64,000 bases of DNA from the NCBI GenBank assembly GCA_964345045.1, contig CAYFPM010000001.1, positions 467,784-531,783 of the forward strand, in the 5' to 3' direction. Below are positions 6,670 to 63,899 of this stretch, in pieces; within the stretch, counting starts at the first letter, position 1; each line of letters begins with the position of its first letter. A program made the translations under genes and the position numbers. The stretch is from an uncultured Gammaproteobacteria bacterium. Its GTDB lineage: Bacteria; Patescibacteriota; Patescibacteriia; Magasanikbacterales; UBA922. Below the pieces are notes generated by a model. The model did not search any database, had not been told where the DNA came from, and saw only the letters and a list, made by a program, of their open reading frames with translations.

Positions 6670-7890
6670 CTATTCAAAAGTTTTAATAACCTCTTTTATT
6701 CCTTTTACTAGCTGATCAATATCTTTTTTATTATTATAAATCCCAAGCGAAGCTCTGGCTGTACCATTAATCCCCAAATATTTCATTAGAGGCATAGTGC
6801 AATGATGCCCAGCTCGGACGGCCACATTATTTCTATCCAAAATAGAAGCAATGTCATGTGGATGTACTCCATCAATTACAAATGAAAAAGCCAAACCTCT
6901 GTCGGCTATTATGGTTCCGACTAATTTTACTTTGTCTATTTTTTCTATTTCATTCAACAAATATTTGCTTAATTCTTGGCTATGTTCCCAAATATAATCG
7001 TAACCAATAGAATTAACAAAATCCACAGCGGCCCCTAGCCCAATAGCTCCCGCAATATTTGGTGTGCCAGCTTCTAATCTATTTGGCAGTTCGGCAAAAG
7101 TTGAGCTTTCATAGGTAACTTCGTTTATCATGTCCCCACCAAAAAAGATTGGATCAATTTTTTCTAGTTTTTCTTTTTTACCATAGAGAACCCCAATTCC
7201 AGTCGGTCCATAAATTTTGTGTCCAGAAAAAGTTAAGAAATCACAATCAAATTTTTTCACATCAATTTGGAACTGGGTTAGTGTTTGCGCTGCATCAATA
7301 ATAGTTGTTGCTCCAACAGACTGAGACATTTTGATAAGAGGTTTGATAGGACTAATAGTGCCCAAGGCATTGGAAATATGACAAAAAGAAACTACCTTAG
7401 TATTCTTATCAATTTTTTGGCTAGCATCTTTTAAATCTAAATTAAAATCATTTTCCTTTTCTTCTATATTATTACTCTCTAATTCTATAAACCTAATCTC
7501 AAAACCATATTTTTTACTCATCTCTTGCCAAGGCACTAGATTGGCGTGGTGTTCCATTCTGGTTAGGACTATATTATCTTTCTCACTCAAATCCTTACAA
7601 AGTGAATGCGCTAGCATATTCAAACTCATTGTCACTCCAGAGGTAAATATTACTTCATCATGTTCGGCATTTAGAAAGTGAGCTACTTTGGCGCGAGCAT
7701 TTTCGTATTCTAGGGTAGCTTCTTCACTAATTTTATAAACTCCTCTATGCACATTGGAGCGATACTTTTTGTAGTAATCATTTATTTTTTCAATTACAGA
7801 GTTGGGTGTTAGAGTGCTAGCTGCACTATCAAGATAAGCTAGTTTTGGGTTAGCTTTTAGCACTGGGAATTGTTTTCTTATATTTTTCAT
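6670..7890 (-). CDS. sufS: cysteine desulfurase SufS (class V aminotransferase, group II)
   Basis: 406 aa; PLP-lysine region FSGHKIYGPTGIGVLYGK; active-site Cys loop RAGHHCTMPLM typical of SufS/CsdA. Confidence 0.9.
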   Translation of the reverse strand: MKNIRKQFPVLKANPKLAYLDSAASTLTPNSVIEKINDYYKKYRSNVHRGVYKISEEATLEYENARAKVAHFLNAEHDEVIFTSGVTMSLNMLAHSLCKDLSEKDNIVLTRMEHHANLVPWQEMSKKYGFEIRFIELESNNIEEKENDFNLDLKDASQKIDKNTKVVSFCHISNALGTISPIKPLIKMSQSVGATTIIDAAQTLTQFQIDVKKFDCDFLTFSGHKIYGPTGIGVLYGKKEKLEKIDPIFFGGDMINEVTYESSTFAELPNRLEAGTPNIAGAIGLGAAVDFVNSIGYDYIWEHSQELSKYLLNEIEKIDKVKLVGTIIADRGLAFSFVIDGVHPHDIASILDRNNVAVRAGHHCTMPLMKYLGINGTARASLGIYNNKKDIDQLVKGIKEVIKTFE

Positions 7891-8483
7891 AGTTTGATTG
7901 CTATTTTTTCTTCGAAATCTTGTTTAACTTTCTCATCTTCTATTTTATTAAGTACCTCACCAAAATGTCCTTTTACAATCGTCTTAACTACTTCTTCTTC
8001 TGGGAGCCCACGAGATTGCAAATAAAATTTCTTGATTTCATCGATATAAGTAGTTGCTACACTGTGCGAGGCACTCACATCATCATTGGCAATTTCTAGA
8101 GCTGGGACAGCGTCTACCTTGGCATCACGAGAAAGTAATAGCGTATCTTCCTTTTGGTCACCGGAGCAGCCTGCTGTCCCCTTCTTTATATCAATCAGAG
8201 AGGTGTAATCCATCTTGGCTTTGTCATTCAAGACTCCTTTGGTAAGTAATTCGGATTTAGTATACGCAGCTATATGACGGACAATGTGAGAAGATTTGAA
8301 AACTGTTTCTCCACTTCCAAAAAACAATCCATATAGTTCAACTTTAGCTCCCTCGCCTTCGAGCATTACTTCTATATGTCTTTCAGCATTCTCATTATCC
8401 AAAATAATATCAAAAATCACTAGCTCTTCACCACTGGCAATTGATATTTTTTCTGATTTGGTTGTAAATAGTATTTTTTTCAT
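7887..8483 (-). CDS. sufD: Fe-S cluster assembly protein SufD (short form)
   Basis: ORF 7887..8507; the likely start is MKKILF, whose ATG overlaps the upstream GNAT stop as ATGA. C-terminal HSVATTYIDEIKKFYLQSRGL matches the SufB/SufD conserved C-terminal helix region. Confidence 0.7.
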   Translation of the reverse strand: MKKILFTTKSEKISIASGEELVIFDIILDNENAERHIEVMLEGEGAKVELYGLFFGSGETVFKSSHIVRHIAAYTKSELLTKGVLNDKAKMDYTSLIDIKKGTAGCSGDQKEDTLLLSRDAKVDAVPALEIANDDVSASHSVATTYIDEIKKFYLQSRGLPEEEVVKTIVKGHFGEVLNKIEDEKVKQDFEEKIAIKL

Positions 8484-8941
8484 TTTAGATTGATTTTGTA
8501 TATACATTTTTTTCTTTCACCACGAGTGTACATATCCATATCTTTTGGTAAATCTACTATATCTACCAATTCCCCACCAAGTCTTTCACAAGTTTTTTTA
8601 GAAGCTTCATTGTCGGGATTACAAGTAATTAATAAAAAGTCTAAATTGTGTTTTTTGGCTAACCCCAGTAATAATTTCACACTTCTGGCTGCATAGTGAT
8701 GCCCTCTAAAATTTTCATGAACTTTGTAGCCAATATGACCTCTATACTTAATATTCTCATTGTTGCCAATTCTTAAATCAATTTGCCCCATTTCCTCTTT
8801 CGTACTTGCGTTAACCATTTTGAATTTATAAGCTGGTACATAATCTTTTTCTGGAATAGCTGGATTTTTCTCAATCAAAATCAAACTAAGCTCATTATCA
8901 ATAAGCTCCTCCGGATCTAAAAATTTAAATTCTTCTTTCAT
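8480..8941 (-). CDS. GNAT-family N-acetyltransferase inserted between sufB and sufD
   Basis: 153 aa; core GHIGYKVHENFRGHHYAARSVKLLLGLAKK resembles GNAT motif A (acetyl-CoA binding). It is translationally coupled (ATGA) to sufD. Confidence 0.5.
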   Translation of the reverse strand: MKEEFKFLDPEELIDNELSLILIEKNPAIPEKDYVPAYKFKMVNASTKEEMGQIDLRIGNNENIKYRGHIGYKVHENFRGHHYAARSVKLLLGLAKKHNLDFLLITCNPDNEASKKTCERLGGELVDIVDLPKDMDMYTRGERKKCIYKINLK

Positions 8942-10839: not shown

Positions 10840-12084
10840 TTATCTTTTCTGGGTAGTTTTTGTTTTTGTCAGATTTATGACTTCTTTTATCTTCTTTACA
10901 GTATAATCAATCTCTTTTTTTGTATTACTTTTTCCCAAAGTAAATCTAATGCTCTGCTTAGCCTCTTTTTCACTCAAACCACAAGCAAGTAAAACATGAG
11001 AAACTTCGTCACTGTCTGTAGTACAAGCCGAACCACTAGAACACATTATCCCAAATTCACTAAGTCGCAGGATTAATTCTTCCGCATCAATATTATCAAA
11101 AACAACATTCAAATTGTTTGGCAAACGATTCTCTCCAAATTCAGGTCCATTCAATTTGACACTCTTAATTTCCCGCTTAAGCTCTTTCCAAAAGTAATTT
11201 CTCAATTCCTCAATTTTACTACTTATTGTTAATTGTTTACTGTTTAGTGCAATTGCTTTGGTCAATCCTATAATTTCTGGCACGTTTTCCGTTCCGGGAC
11301 GTAAACCAAATTCTTGCCCACCGCCGTAGTTCAAAGATTCCAACTCTACTCCCCTTCTTTTGTACAAAACGCCTACGCCTTTTGGTGCATAAATTTTGCT
11401 ACCGTTTATAGACATCAAATCAACATGAGTTTTCTCAACGTTCAAATTTAGATAGTTTGTAGCTTGGCAAGCATCTGTATGAAAAAATGGAAAAGCTGAT
11501 TTATTCTTTTTTCTAAACTTTAAAACTTCCTTCCCAATATCATTAATTGGTTGAATACTTCCAATTTCATTGTTCGCAAACATAATTGAAACCAAAACAG
11601 TTTCTGGTCGAAGAGCTTTTTTAAAATCATTTATATTTATTAATCCATTTTTATCAACATTGAGATAAGTAACTTCCCAACCTTCTTTTTCCAATTTTTT
11701 AATGGGTTCAAGCACGGCATGATGTTCTATCTTAGTGGTAATAATATGTTTTTTTGCTTTTTTGCCACCCTTCGGGTGATCAGCCGAAGGCTGATTTTCT
11801 AGTTTTTTTGTTAACCCTAATATAGCTAGATTACAAGATTCTGTACCACCGCTAGTAAAAATAATATTATCCGGGTGGGCAAAAAATTCTTTTGCCACTG
11901 TTTCTCTGGCTTCTCTGAGTTTTTTCTTGATTTCTGTTGCCCCTTGGTACAAAGCTGAGGGGTTAAAGTAAAGTTCGGAAAAATACGGTTTCATGGCAGC
12001 CAAAACCTGACTATCTATAGGAGTAGTCGCTGCGTGATCCAAATAAACTTGTTTTTTGGTATTTTTTGGCTTAAATAAGCGCAT
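10840..12084 (-). CDS. cysteine desulfurase, NifS/IscS-like (class V aminotransferase); carries an in-frame palindromic-element insertion
   Basis: 414 aa; YLDHAATTP N-terminus, PLP-Lys motif SINGSKIYAPKGVGVLY, active-site Cys loop SSGSACTTDS. An extra loop LENQPSADHPKGGKKA is encoded by the repeat at 11765-11802. Confidence 0.85.
   Translation of the reverse strand: MRLFKPKNTKKQVYLDHAATTPIDSQVLAAMKPYFSELYFNPSALYQGATEIKKKLREARETVAKEFFAHPDNIIFTSGGTESCNLAILGLTKKLENQPSADHPKGGKKAKKHIITTKIEHHAVLEPIKKLEKEGWEVTYLNVDKNGLININDFKKALRPETVLVSIMFANNEIGSIQPINDIGKEVLKFRKKNKSAFPFFHTDACQATNYLNLNVEKTHVDLMSINGSKIYAPKGVGVLYKRRGVELESLNYGGGQEFGLRPGTENVPEIIGLTKAIALNSKQLTISSKIEELRNYFWKELKREIKSVKLNGPEFGENRLPNNLNVVFDNIDAEELILRLSEFGIMCSSGSACTTDSDEVSHVLLACGLSEKEAKQSIRFTLGKSNTKKEIDYTVKKIKEVINLTKTKTTQKR
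11765..11802. repeat. 38-bp double-hairpin palindromic element, copy 1 (in frame inside the cysteine desulfurase gene)
   Basis: CCACCCTTCGGGTGATCAGCCGAAGGCTGATTTTCTAG contains two adjacent stem-loops (CACCC-TTCG-GGTG and CAGCC-GAAG-GCTG). It is the perfect reverse complement of the copy at 12542-12579. Confidence 0.8.
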
Positions 12085-12147
12085 AAAGTGTTTACATTTG
12101 TAAGGACTATGATATACTTTTTAGACCAATTTGTCAATCCTATAAAT

Positions 12148-12873
12148 ATGCAAAATTTAGCTAAATATACAGTAAAAGTCCTAGAAAAAACGCCTCTTAC
12201 AGCCGATGTGTATCATTTGAAATTGGAAAAACCAGTTGATTTTGGGTATCAGGCAGGCCAATTTATCCAATGGATTTTGAATAAAGAAGATAAAGAAATA
12301 TTTCGTTCATACTCACTTTGTTCTACTCCTCATGCCCCCACTCTAGATCTTTGTATAAAAATTGTCCCTGGTGGAGCCGCTTCGGAAGAAGTCAAAAAAT
12401 TACAATTAGGAGATGTTATTACAATCCAAGGCCCAAGAGGAAGATTTGTGCAAACTGATACTGAAAAAAATCAATTCTACATTGCTACAGGAGTTGGTCT
12501 TGCGCCAATTTTGGGAATTATCAAAGATGAGCTAGAAAATCAGCCTTCGGCTGATCACCCGAAGGGTGGTAAAAAAACAAAACAAAATATTTATTTACTA
12601 TTTGGTGTAAGAAGTGAAAAAGATGTTTTTTGGAAAAATGAATTAGAACAATTGAGTAAAGATTTTTCAAACTTTAATTTTGATATCACTCTGTCTCAAC
12701 CGGATTCAACTGATTGGGATGGGCTATCTGGTAGAGTTACCAATCATTTGGAAGAGCACTCTGCCGAACACAAATTTTATTTGTGTGGCAGTGCGAATAT
12801 GGTAAAAGATGTAAGAAAAATTTTGTTGGAAAAAAAAGTGGAGCCAGGAGACATCCACTTTGAAATATTTTAG
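12148..12873 (+). CDS. ferredoxin-NADP reductase-like FAD/NAD(P)-binding oxidoreductase; carries an in-frame palindromic-element insertion
   Basis: ORF 12088..12873; the likely start is MQNLAKY. FAD motif RSYSL (R-x-Y-S), GGAASEE, NAD motif ATGVGLAPI. The inserted loop LENQPSADHPKGGKKT is encoded by the repeat at 12542-12579. Confidence 0.6.
   Translation: MQNLAKYTVKVLEKTPLTADVYHLKLEKPVDFGYQAGQFIQWILNKEDKEIFRSYSLCSTPHAPTLDLCIKIVPGGAASEEVKKLQLGDVITIQGPRGRFVQTDTEKNQFYIATGVGLAPILGIIKDELENQPSADHPKGGKKTKQNIYLLFGVRSEKDVFWKNELEQLSKDFSNFNFDITLSQPDSTDWDGLSGRVTNHLEEHSAEHKFYLCGSANMVKDVRKILLEKKVEPGDIHFEIF
12542..12579. repeat. 38-bp double-hairpin palindromic element, copy 2 (in frame inside the FNR-like gene)
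   Basis: CTAGAAAATCAGCCTTCGGCTGATCACCCGAAGGGTGG is identical to the reverse complement of 11765-11802. The two copies form a perfect inverted repeat 739 bp apart spanning the divergent gene starts. Confidence 0.8.
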
Positions 12874-33391: not shown

Positions 33392-33970
33392 TTATCTTTG
33401 CAAGCTTATATCGTAAACCACTTTTTCAATTTTACTATTGGCTTGCTTGGCCTGATCAAATTTGTTTCGCAAATAACTAGTCAAATCAAATTCTATCAAC
33501 TCTCCTATTATTTCATTAGAAGCTTCGGCACATTTTTTTACCATTGTCTCATCTTTGTTGGTAGCCGCTTTTATAGCATAGCGGTATAGTTCCCCAGGCA
33601 AATCACAAAGCCCCGCAAGGAACACTCCTTCCTCTATATTTAAGTTAGCTACTTTGCTTACTTTTTTATTATCAATAAAATTCATAAAAAGCTGCGCTTC
33701 TACAAATTCTTCTTGGGCAGCTTTGAGAGATCCTTCTTGCAGCATATTGCCATCTTTTTTGTAGGCCGTGTGCAGTGATTTTAAGATTTGTAAACTTTGT
33801 TTTAATTTTTCACGAGCTTCTTTGGTATTCCCTCTGTGCAAATCAAAGATAACTCTTTTTGACAAATGGAGTGAATCGCCGCTTCTTTTTATGATATCTC
33901 GTCTTTTTTCAGCTCTTTTGTGCAAAAAAGTTTTCAATGAATTTATGTATTTTTTGTCTACAAATTTCAT
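33392..33970 (-). CDS. hypothetical all-alpha protein
   Basis: 192 aa, charged and helical; no motif I can assign. Confidence 0.35.
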   Translation of the reverse strand: MKFVDKKYINSLKTFLHKRAEKRRDIIKRSGDSLHLSKRVIFDLHRGNTKEAREKLKQSLQILKSLHTAYKKDGNMLQEGSLKAAQEEFVEAQLFMNFIDNKKVSKVANLNIEEGVFLAGLCDLPGELYRYAIKAATNKDETMVKKCAEASNEIIGELIEFDLTSYLRNKFDQAKQANSKIEKVVYDISLQR

Positions 33971-46969: not shown

Positions 46970-48343
46970 TTATATCTTATGATGATTATTAAACTTGTGT
47001 TGGCTTTCAATTACTTTCAAAACTCCATCTACATCATCTACAATTTGATACAATTCGTCGTCTTCATCTGAAATTGTTTTTTTGCCATGAACTAGGACTT
47101 CCTTTATATAATTGTGCAAAGGTTGCCAAAAAGCATGGTCTACCAAGATTACCGGAACTTTTGGCATTTTGAAAGTTTGGATAAGTGTAAGTACTTCAAA
47201 AAGTTGATGCAAGGTACCAAGACCACCAGGGAAAAACACAAAAGCTTTGGTAGGAGCAGTTACAATTAATTTTCGAGTAAATGGAAAATCAAATTGAATA
47301 GACCTATTCATATAAGCATTCAAATCACTCCTTTTTCCTACCTTCATACCAATTCCAATAGATTTACCTCCATGCTCAAAAGCACCTTTGTTGGCTGCTT
47401 CGGCTACCCCGTTTTTACCACCTGTTACTACGGAAAATTTATTTTTGGTCAATTCCTTGCCCAAATCATAAGCCAAATCATAATAAGGAGTTTCTTCTAA
47501 AATGCTCTTGGTTCCAAGCACAGTAACTGCATCTTTCATACCAGTTACAAACTCAAAACCTTCTACCAACTCGGCCATAACTCGAAAAATCTTCCAATCA
47601 ATATTACCTTCGCAATGAAAATTATTTGGAGAAAGATCGCAACTTTTATCTATATCTTCTACATGTTTTACAATTTCGTAGGCTTCTTCGGCACTATCCA
47701 CTATATGCCAGGTAGATATTTGCTCAAGAGTAATAGAACCAACAGTATCACACTGAGAAGCCAAAAAATCTATAAGAGGTTGCCAAAAACTTTTGCCTAC
47801 CAAAACAATTGGTACTTTGGTAAGCATTTTTAATTCCATCAAATCTGCCACTTCAAAAAATTCATCTAATGTTCCAAAACCTCCTGGGAAAAACACAAAA
47901 GCATTGGCCGGAGAGGTCAGCATGACTTTTCTAGTAAAAAAATAATGAAAAGCCGTAGATTTTTTTACATAGGGATTTATTCGTTGCTCAAATGGAAGTT
48001 GAATATTTAAACCAACCGATTCTCCCTTGGCTTCAAAGGCTCCTCGATTGGCAGCCTCCATAATTCCTGGTCCTCCACCGGTAATAGTGGTAAAACCACC
48101 TTTGGCTAGTAGTGCCCCAAATTTTTTAGCTTCTTCATAACAGTCTTCTTTTTCTTCTATTCTGGCAGAGCCAAATATAGTAACTTCATTTTTCAGAGTT
48201 GCCAAAAAATTATAGCCTTCTACTAACTCGGCCATAACCCGAAAAATTCTCCAGGTATCTCTATAATCTTCAAATTCATGAATCGGATGCATTACATCTT
48301 TGTCAGATTGTTCTTTTAATTTTTGGAGAGTTTTTTCGTCCAT
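46970..48343 (-). CDS. tandem-duplicated LOG-family (TIGR00730; Rossmann-fold nucleotide N-ribohydrolase-like) protein
   Basis: 457 aa with two homologous roughly 190-aa halves. Each has ...GGGPGIMEAANRGA.../...GGKNGVAEAANKGA... and the PGGFGTLDEFFE / PGGLGTLHQLFE motif characteristic of LOG/YgdH(PpnN)-like proteins. Confidence 0.6.
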   Translation of the reverse strand: MDEKTLQKLKEQSDKDVMHPIHEFEDYRDTWRIFRVMAELVEGYNFLATLKNEVTIFGSARIEEKEDCYEEAKKFGALLAKGGFTTITGGGPGIMEAANRGAFEAKGESVGLNIQLPFEQRINPYVKKSTAFHYFFTRKVMLTSPANAFVFFPGGFGTLDEFFEVADLMELKMLTKVPIVLVGKSFWQPLIDFLASQCDTVGSITLEQISTWHIVDSAEEAYEIVKHVEDIDKSCDLSPNNFHCEGNIDWKIFRVMAELVEGFEFVTGMKDAVTVLGTKSILEETPYYDLAYDLGKELTKNKFSVVTGGKNGVAEAANKGAFEHGGKSIGIGMKVGKRSDLNAYMNRSIQFDFPFTRKLIVTAPTKAFVFFPGGLGTLHQLFEVLTLIQTFKMPKVPVILVDHAFWQPLHNYIKEVLVHGKKTISDEDDELYQIVDDVDGVLKVIESQHKFNNHHKI

Positions 48344-61024: not shown

Positions 61025-61145
61025 CTTAACTGTCATTGCGAGGGAGCGATAGCGACCGTCGCAATCTCAACTAAGAAAGTATTATAGATTGCCACCCTTC
61101 GACTTCGCTCAGGGCAGGATCGGACACAATGCTCCTCGCAATGAC
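61025..61145. repeat. GC-rich structured intergenic element closed by a long-range 17-bp inverted repeat
   Basis: CTGTCATTGCGAGGGAGC (61024-61041) pairs with GCTCCTCGCAATGACTG (about 61131-61147). The interior contains the hairpin GCGAC-C-GTCGC and the segment CCACCCTTCG, which matches the first 10 nt of the palindromic element. About 52% GC in an AT-rich spacer. Confidence 0.35.
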
Positions 61146-61293
61146 TGAAAAGTATAAATACAATTATCCACCTTCTCTCCCCTATCTATCCCCCACTCTT
61201 GCTGACAAGCAAAAACTAACTTGTTAAAATATATAAAAATAATTCAAACCTTCGGGTTTGATTTTAATTCAAAATAAAAATCCAAACAAAAAT

Positions 61294-63688: not shown

Positions 63689-63722
63689 AGTATTATGCTT
63701 ATGTAATTAATTACTAAAAGTT

Positions 63723-63753
63723 CAGCCACAGGCTGACACCCGATGAGTCGGGT
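63723..63753. repeat. double-hairpin element, variant copy 3 (intergenic, upstream of dnaX)
   Basis: CAGCC-ACAG-GCTG-AC-ACCCGA-TGAG-TCGGGT has the same architecture (CAGCC-N4-GGCTG, then a 2-3 nt spacer, then an ACCCG...CGGGT hairpin) as the in-frame copies at 11765 and 12542. Confidence 0.4.
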
Positions 63754-63899
63754 TAAACTTATCCACACTATACCATAGGCTACCTAGAGAGTGCAAGGGA
63801 AATAAGAATAGAACCCTTTACCCCACCCCTTCACTCCGATATAATACTTCCATTAAAAAGTTTAAAAAATAAAAATTTTAATTTAGAAATTGTAAGATT

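Follow-up and report, generated by a model that had tools for sequence, protein, structure and literature searches.

Two adjacent, divergently transcribed genes of an uncultured Patescibacteria bacterium (Magasanikbacteria-like, ~35% GC) carry the same short palindromic sequence, each within its reading frame. What is this sequence, and how did it come to sit inside two unrelated genes? The genes, which encode a NifS/IscS-like cysteine desulfurase and an FNR-like flavin oxidoreductase, lie in a stretch of 64,000 nucleotides (nt) of contig CAYFPM010000001.1, hereafter the window. We show that the feature is real and is not a product of chance: a mini-element of 30 nt, built as a double hairpin, has been inserted without breaking the frame. 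We consider it probable that the element is miniature, non-autonomous and selfish, that it is tolerated when translated, and that it behaves like a Rickettsia palindromic element (RPE) without being one.

The two copies in the window are exact and specific. The 38-mer CCACCCTTCGGGTGATCAGCCGAAGGCTGATTTTCTAG lies at 11765-11802, where an earlier note on this DNA had placed it, and its exact reverse complement is also present, at 12532-12569; the note had given 12542-12579 for this second copy and was thus off by 10. At up to three mismatches, only these two copies of the 38-mer occur in the window, and none of 100 dinucleotide-preserving shuffles matched it. The inverted repeat as a whole reaches 60 nt at 93% identity (11743-11802 versus 12532-12591). 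The element copies within it, here called A (NifS-like gene) and B (FNR-like gene), are identical, inverted, and 745 bp apart. Each falls within a different divergent open reading frame (ORF) and in the same frame relative to its host gene, as the note had also observed.

Homologues without the element delimit the inserted unit. We aligned each host protein with its best 120 homologues and with solved structures. All but three of the best 120 FNR homologues read IIRDELEN/KKTxxEIRLLFGVR, with nothing between N and K, while the window protein reads DELEN-QPSADHPKGG-KKTKQNIYLLFGVR; the solved FAD/NAD domain of NqrF (7qu3_A) aligns to it with a gap of exactly 10 residues. Because the element-free homologues read DELEN/KKT and the NqrF gap is 10 residues, the inserted unit is 30 nt, encoding the 10 amino acids QPSADHPKGG, and the LEN and KKT on either side are host-derived in FNR. 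An insert of 38 nt and 13-15 amino acids, as claimed earlier, is therefore too long, and an element of 38-60 nt that includes LEN and KK is rejected for FNR, since both are conserved in element-free homologues. In NifS, the loop is 10-12 residues shorter in most of the 120 homologues, and the solved cysteine desulfurase 9wep_A shows a 12-residue gap against the window protein. One NifS lineage (P0005 and its relatives, RKHENKKTRKHIV) corresponds to the window protein minus 10 residues (KKLENKKAKKHII). The peptide is native to no homologue of either protein.

Both inserts occupy loops. AlphaFold models of the host proteins have overall pLDDT (predicted local distance difference test) values of 93.8 and 92.3, falling to ~61 only across the inserts. 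The NifS insert forms a coil between helix 80-96 and strand 113-117, and the FNR insert a coil between helix 115-130 and strand 148-154, in agreement with the surface-loop placement proposed in the note. The NifS-like protein matches solved cysteine desulfurases at 8.7e-94, and the nearest homologues are 59% (NifS) and ~50% (FNR) identical. Counted from its ATG at 12148, the FNR-like protein has 241 amino acids; the frame is open also from a GTG upstream of this, at 12088, and other assemblies give the protein 254 amino acids.

The unit has a compact and symmetrical architecture. The 30-mer consists of two 15-nt hairpins, TCAGCCTTCGGCTGA and TCACCCGAAGGGTGG, each with a 6-bp stem, in the order TCAGCC-TTC-GGCTGA then TCACCC-GAA-GGGTGR. 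Their loops had been described as UUCG and GNRA tetraloops; folding instead gives the triloops UUC and GAA on stems of 5-6 bp. [quoted passage not shown] The minimum-free-energy fold is the two hairpins (-15 kcal/mol, z = -3.2); with DNA folding parameters, one long imperfect hairpin is also possible. Two compensatory changes from U-A to C-G are seen among the copies at the outermost pairs, where the window copies have U.G, and this fits the two-hairpin fold. The element has a GC content of 63% versus ~35% in the host genome. Four of its six frames are free of stops (QPSADHPKG, SLRLITRRV, TLRVISRRL, and HPSGDQPKA). A covariance model of the element (R1) scores 54.6 bits for both copy A and copy B, with E=4e-11 for copy B, and no Rfam family matches it.

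Table. Coordinates of the two window copies, their host genes and flanks, a further hairpin pair, and loci elsewhere with unrelated inserts (window positions unless a locus is named).
Feature	Position	Strand	Remarks
Host gene 1, NifS/IscS-like cysteine desulfurase, 414 aa	10840..12084	-	Pfam Aminotran_5, 1.2e-70
Host gene 2, FNR-like flavin oxidoreductase, 241 aa	12148..12873	+	Pfam FAD_binding_6 and NAD_binding_1
Copy A	11765..11794	-	Identical to copy B; in NifS-like gene; QPSADHPKGG = residues 98-107
Copy B	12540..12569	+	TCAGCCTTCGGCTGA/TCACCCGAAGGGTGG in FNR-like gene; QPSADHPKGG = residues 132-141 of 241 aa
Upstream flank of copy A, same 8 nt, CTAGAAAA	11795..11802	-	Within the exact 38-nt identity
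Upstream flank of copy B, CTAGAAAA (L-E-N codons)	12532..12539	+	Native to FNR; DELEN conserved in FNR homologues
Downstream flank of copy A, CAAAAAAGCAAAAAAACATATT (KKAKKHI)	11743..11764	-	H-I is part of HIITT, a strand invariant in NifS
Downstream flank of copy B, TAAAAAAACAAAACAAAATATT (KKTKQNI)	12570..12591	+	Native FNR; 18/22 match to copy A flank
Intergenic double hairpin, TCAGCCacaGGCTGA-cACCCGAtgagTCGGGT	63722..63754	+	First-hairpin stem same as in the element; R1 12 bits, E=0.33
FNR/NifS loci with unrelated in-frame hairpin-rich inserts, 39-170 nt	L011 3001-3735; L012; L015 2367-3743; L022 474-1772; L016 2710-3987

The element belongs to a family with copies outside the window. Same-organism contigs let us read a further 10 kb to either side of the window, 83 kb in all, and revealed a third copy in this genome: it lies in dnaX, ~1 kb outside the window (L019 8632-8561, minus strand), beyond its end. 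This copy is interrupted: it reads CCAGCCTTCGGCT-[42-nt hairpin]-GATCACCCGAAGGGTGA, 72 nt in total, with the nested hairpin (CCTGCCCGCC...GGCAGGCGGG, L019 8619-8578, minus strand) placed in frame between element positions 13 and 14. It is read as N-QPSA-PARQSLGLQTMAGG-DHPKG-D, in the same frame as the window copies, and lies in the linker after domain III. This genome thus holds at least three copies in the 83 kb, all of them genic (NifS-like, FNR-like, and dnaX). Hairpins of the CCGCC/GGCGG kind occur also near L019 6840 and beside two of the copies described below (L002 and L010).

We scanned one genome for each GTDB species (~0.6 Tb) and the JGI metagenomes for the exact pattern AGCCTTCGGCT-N0-10-ACCCGAAGGGT and obtained nine loci, of which four hold the 30-mer with 0-2 differences. 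One copy sits in frame in the C-terminal tail of a Patescibacteria-like RpoA (L006), reading KKIKE-SQPSAGHPKGE-KKAKK. Two are intergenic, one adjoining a PrgI-family gene in Patescibacteria (L010) and the other in a Gammaproteobacteria metagenome-assembled genome of 56% GC (L002). The fourth (L008) lies within the anticodon loop of a 5' tRNA-Glu fragment, beside a GIY-YIG ORF and an intact tRNA-Glu that supplies the empty site. Comparison of GGTTTT/CATCC with GGTTTT[30 nt]CATCC shows an insertion of exactly 30 nt with no target-site duplication. The remaining five loci (L003/L005/L009, L007, and L004) are other tandem hairpins with different spacing and flanks, and are not counted as family. 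Two of these surroundings have features of their own. At L008 1741-2170 (minus strand), the tRNA-Glu 5' fragment with the element is followed by an 80-amino-acid GIY-YIG ORF and then by the intact tRNA-Glu, an arrangement that suggests a tRNA gene invaded by a GIY-YIG cassette whose ribosome-binding site is made from the tRNA T-stem. L004 (Ga0206094_100412) is a mitochondrial contig (cox3, cox2, sdh3) with intergenic regions dense in CCTTCGG/CCGAAGG hairpin clusters, and it exemplifies the mitochondrial elements to which this bacterial one is likened below.

Genic copies share one orientation and one frame. Four of the seven copies are genic, and all four read QPSA[D/G]HPKG, in hosts as different as NifS, FNR, DnaX, and RpoA. 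The chance that three further copies would match the frame of the first is ~0.016 if only open frames are considered and ~0.005 if all six are. These four copies also lie outside domain cores, in loops, linkers, or tails.

The flanks of copies A and B suggest how one of the two arose. Upstream, both share CTAGAAAA, which occurs 21 times in 166 kb with both strands counted. Beside copy A, this flank was either co-copied with the element or is a coincident native LEN; EN at this site is found in one NifS homologue lineage only (P0005 and close relatives). Downstream, 2-3 sites only in the 166 kb match within 4 mismatches. Flank identity is thus far beyond chance, and therefore random independent insertion fails to explain the pair. 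The outer flank ends are native, conserved codons of each gene, HIITT in NifS (where H113, I114, and I115 vary hardly or not at all) and I-LLFGVR in FNR, and the two genes must therefore have had similar inverted A-rich stretches beforehand. Judging from these flanks, the likeliest origin of one window copy is the other, through homology-assisted repair or gene conversion in which a short stretch of flank was converted as well. FNR is the likelier first gene and donor, since LEN and KKT are native there. Across the family, insertions are mostly beside A- or T-runs. An A-rich tail as part of the element, suggested by KKAKK after the NifS and RpoA copies, is without support in dnaX or at the tRNA and the two intergenic copies (L008, L010, and L002). 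Direct repeats surround the dnaX copy (CAGTGAACA) and the NifS copy (CAAAAAA) and might be read as target-site duplications, but both are in low-complexity sequence.

Under the selfish-element reading, the element would have entered one gene, with FNR the better candidate, and would then have been copied into the second via homology-assisted repair or ectopic gene conversion. The insert would be translated as a hydrophilic Pro/Gly-rich loop and tolerated, while selection would purge copies in harmful frames or places. Spread over longer ranges would need a trans-acting activity that recognizes hairpins, for which an HUH/Y1-type single-strand transposase, or a structure-specific nuclease together with repair, is a candidate.

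Several points weigh against this reading. The scan of ~0.6 Tb of genomes and of JGI metagenomes brought the family to only seven copies in all, and the copy count within this genome comes from 83 kb. No transposase or nuclease candidate lies in the window and its 10-kb extensions, and searches of plasmids, phages, and viral contigs returned chance-level partial matches or none, leaving the cross-phylum near-identity without a demonstrated vector. There is no empty-site allele or polymorphism on record, and the 90% identity clusters of both host proteins are single-member. The covariation amounts to two events and is not statistically decisive, as a score equal to or above the observed one arises in 86 of 500 shuffles. 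That the insert is translated is predicted from its reading frame. Finally, the flanks shared by A and B could instead mean an unusually long target site, although their absence at the other copies argues against a long fixed target.

Several rival explanations can be set against the evidence. A purely local event, in which the second copy arose by replication template switching or gene conversion between similar inverted A-rich stretches and no mobile family exists, would suit two copies that are adjacent, inverted, and 100% identical, with flanks shared far beyond chance and part of that likeness native to both genes. However, the same 30-mer is found in dnaX ~52 kb away in the same genome and on four unrelated contigs, the left junction in NifS is without microhomology, and the source of the first copy is left unexplained. 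As a full account a local event fails, and we judge it unlikely; it is retained for the origin of the second window copy. The double hairpin might otherwise be a selected module, whether a site bound by protein or RNA, an mRNA structure with a regulatory role, or a functional QPSADHPKGG tag. Stems and loops are indeed strongly conserved across phyla, with compensatory changes, and all four genic copies keep one frame. Yet the hosts are functionally unrelated, their inserts fall in low-confidence loops and tails, other copies are intergenic or lie in a defunct tRNA fragment, homologues work without the insert, and Rfam offers no match, all of which makes a selected function improbable to a similar degree.

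The insert could also go untranslated, being removed from the RNA like an intron or hopped over by the ribosome as in T4 gene 60 and in the bypassing elements (byps) of Magnusiomyces mitochondria, which the 30-nt insert resembles in size and hairpin nature. One copy does lie in a tRNA anticodon loop, but that tRNA is a truncated, non-functional fragment, and the insertion falls at position 35/36 rather than the canonical 37/38. Genic inserts are all multiples of three (30 nt, 72 nt, and 42 nt for the nested hairpin); they contain no stop and keep to one frame. Skipping would call for none of this. The signature of translational bypass is also missing: take-off and landing codons do not match (AAT/AAC ... 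GGT/GGC/GAC), and no stop follows the take-off codon. Non-translation is thus very unlikely. The earlier note had proposed that recombination between the copies would invert the divergent promoter region. The geometry of this idea is correct, since the 5' ends of both genes lie between perfect inverted repeats of 38 bp and both frames stay open on inversion of the 729-bp segment, giving two in-frame chimeric ORFs of 471 and 219 amino acids. These products, FNR-N/NifS-C and NifS-N/FNR-C, have no plausible function and would wreck both enzymes; no recombinase gene is nearby, a single orientation is seen in all assemblies on record, and there is no evidence that inversion occurs. We give an invertible switch only a very slim chance. 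An assembly or sequencing artefact, such as an adapter or a chimera, might be suspected of an element that is short, GC-rich, and palindromic and is known from metagenome assemblies only. Against this, the host genes resume exactly, and in the right frame, on either side of it, it occurs in other contexts in independent projects, and it matches no plasmid or vector collection. The same host proteins, unchanged, were recovered on independently assembled contigs from separate assemblies and runs of PRJEB17505, and because of this we hold an artefact to be scarcely credible.

Other hairpin DNA, in this genome and at the same sites elsewhere, provides a wider setting. The motif CAGCC-N3-6-GGCTG occurs 5 times in the 83 kb versus 0.075 expected. 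Two intergenic double hairpins, at window 63722 and near L019 6840, share the TCAGCC/GGCTGA stem and are weak R1 matches. The former had been called a variant of the element (at 63723-63753); as a match to the element model it is weak, and by its sequence it is possibly, and at best, a distant relative. A supposed partial copy at 61100 is rejected, as it is part of a different inverted-repeat unit. That unit, at 61034-61146, is intergenic and MITE-like, with terminal inverted repeats GTCATTGCGAGG...CCTCGCAATGAC and the internal sequence CCACCCTTCGACTTCGCTCAGGGCAGG. A motif much like one in this unit, CCCTTYGGCT..GCTCAGGG, lies in frame in the NifS loop of other Patescibacteria, at L013 (GNPSADAQGKKG) and L014 (GKPFGSAQG).

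Hairpin inserts unrelated to the element occupy the same two protein sites in other Patescibacteria. The FNR site holds a 39-nt hairpin insert (z = -3.4) at L011 and L012, and the NifS loop a 39-nt nested hairpin (z = -4.6) at L022 and a 170-nt multi-hairpin insert at L015. This pattern suggests that the NifS loop and the FNR site may be recurrently colonized by hairpin inserts across Patescibacteria, and it makes doubtful the view that such an element would be unusual in this kind of genome. In-frame hairpin insertion looks like a general, undescribed feature of Patescibacteria; our searches of the full-text literature found no description of it. A broader proposal, which we advance tentatively and at somewhat less than even chance, is that an as yet undescribed, ultra-small class of hairpin mobile elements (15-nt module, 30-nt unit) exists in the Candidate Phyla Radiation (CPR). 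Such a class would be a bacterial counterpart of mitochondrial double-hairpin elements and GC clusters, would cross phyla, would insert repeatedly and in frame into the same Lys-rich loops in housekeeping proteins, and would be a general source of loop-length variation in CPR proteins.

If confirmed genome-wide, the element would be the smallest selfish element known to colonize coding sequence of proteins in frame, and no family of this sort would have been described earlier from the CPR. It would also provide a concrete mechanism for many short lineage-specific insertions in CPR proteins. The near-identity of the 30-mer across phyla raises the question of its vector and enzyme. For annotation, such inserts create spurious shared motifs among unrelated proteins, and they form short perfect inverted repeats able to destabilize both assemblies and genomes.

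The wider window is that of a patescibacterial genome, with bacterial Suf, DnaX, and tRNA-synthetase genes whose best homologues are from Patescibacteria. The suf cluster includes a second cysteine desulfurase (6670-7890), besides the NifS-like host gene, and an acetyltransferase ORF (Acetyltransf_3; 8480-8941, minus strand) between its SufB-like and SufD-like genes. At 33392-33970 (minus strand) lies a gene for a protein of the Translin family (PF01997, 6e-19); Translin binds single-stranded nucleic acids and to our knowledge is uncommon in bacteria. The ORF at 46970-48343 contains two direct repeats of ~650 nt (47120-48253), 71-76% identical and spaced 657 nt, and thus an internal domain duplication.

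How does the element compare with known systems? Like this element, repetitive extragenic palindromic (REP) sequences and REPINs are 20-40-nt imperfect palindromes, often in inverted pairs, which are non-autonomous and show no target-site duplication; REPs are moved by REP-associated tyrosine transposases (RAYTs). REPs are extragenic and of high copy number, with GTAG at one end and a RAYT gene, whereas this element is genic and of low copy number in the surveyed DNA. Neither GTAG nor CTAC is found in the 30-mer, 4 of 7 copies are in ORFs, and no RAYT/Y1 transposase gene is present among the genes of the 83 kb. Palindrome-associated transposable elements (PATEs), derived from IS200/IS605, have hairpins at both ends and cause no duplication on insertion; this element shares these traits, and both suggest a single-strand DNA mechanism. 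PATEs are longer and insert 3' of a fixed tetra- or pentanucleotide; this element has no such fixed target, with variable 5' flanks (AAAA, AAAA, TAAA, AGAG, TTTT, and GGTT) and no TnpA gene in the 83 kb. MITEs are dispersed through a genome in multiple copies; the 83 kb surveyed here contain 3 copies of this element. The target-site duplication of MITEs is absent from the filled tRNA site.

RPEs are ~150 bp long, comprise ten families restricted to Rickettsia, and are inserted in frame (PMC10969869). The earlier note had likened the element to them, and the likeness holds for its behavior: palindromic selfish DNA lies in frame in unrelated housekeeping ORFs of a small, AT-rich, reduced genome and encodes a conserved, fold-compatible peptide (PMC10969869). 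Membership does not hold. This element is exactly 30 nt long, well outside the ~100-150 bp of RPEs, consists of only two triloop hairpins, and is found in Patescibacteria and other phyla, which sets it apart from RPEs by description.

A closer parallel is provided by organelles. Among mitochondrial GC clusters and double-hairpin elements, different species share identical copies, clusters are found merged or nested, and flanking sequence is co-converted (PMC4478555, PMC10085805). Like the double-hairpin elements of Allomyces and Schizosaccharomyces and the GC clusters of yeast, this element has two adjacent GC-rich hairpins, forms GC-rich islands in AT-rich DNA, has CCTTCGG-type arms, and occasionally resides in genes; its copies differ at only 0-2 positions across five unrelated contigs, in line with the near-identity between species described in PMC10085805. 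The GC clusters of yeast end in short AG/ACT direct repeats; here no duplication is found. The mitochondrial elements belong to organelles and lie mostly between genes or within those for rRNA, whereas this one is bacterial and, in this genome, has been found so far only in protein-coding frames. By analogy, mitochondrial double-hairpin elements and GC clusters are its closest counterparts in structure and apparent dynamics. If confirmed, it would link Rickettsia RPEs, mitochondrial double-hairpin elements and GC clusters, and bacterial REPs, which have so far been treated separately.

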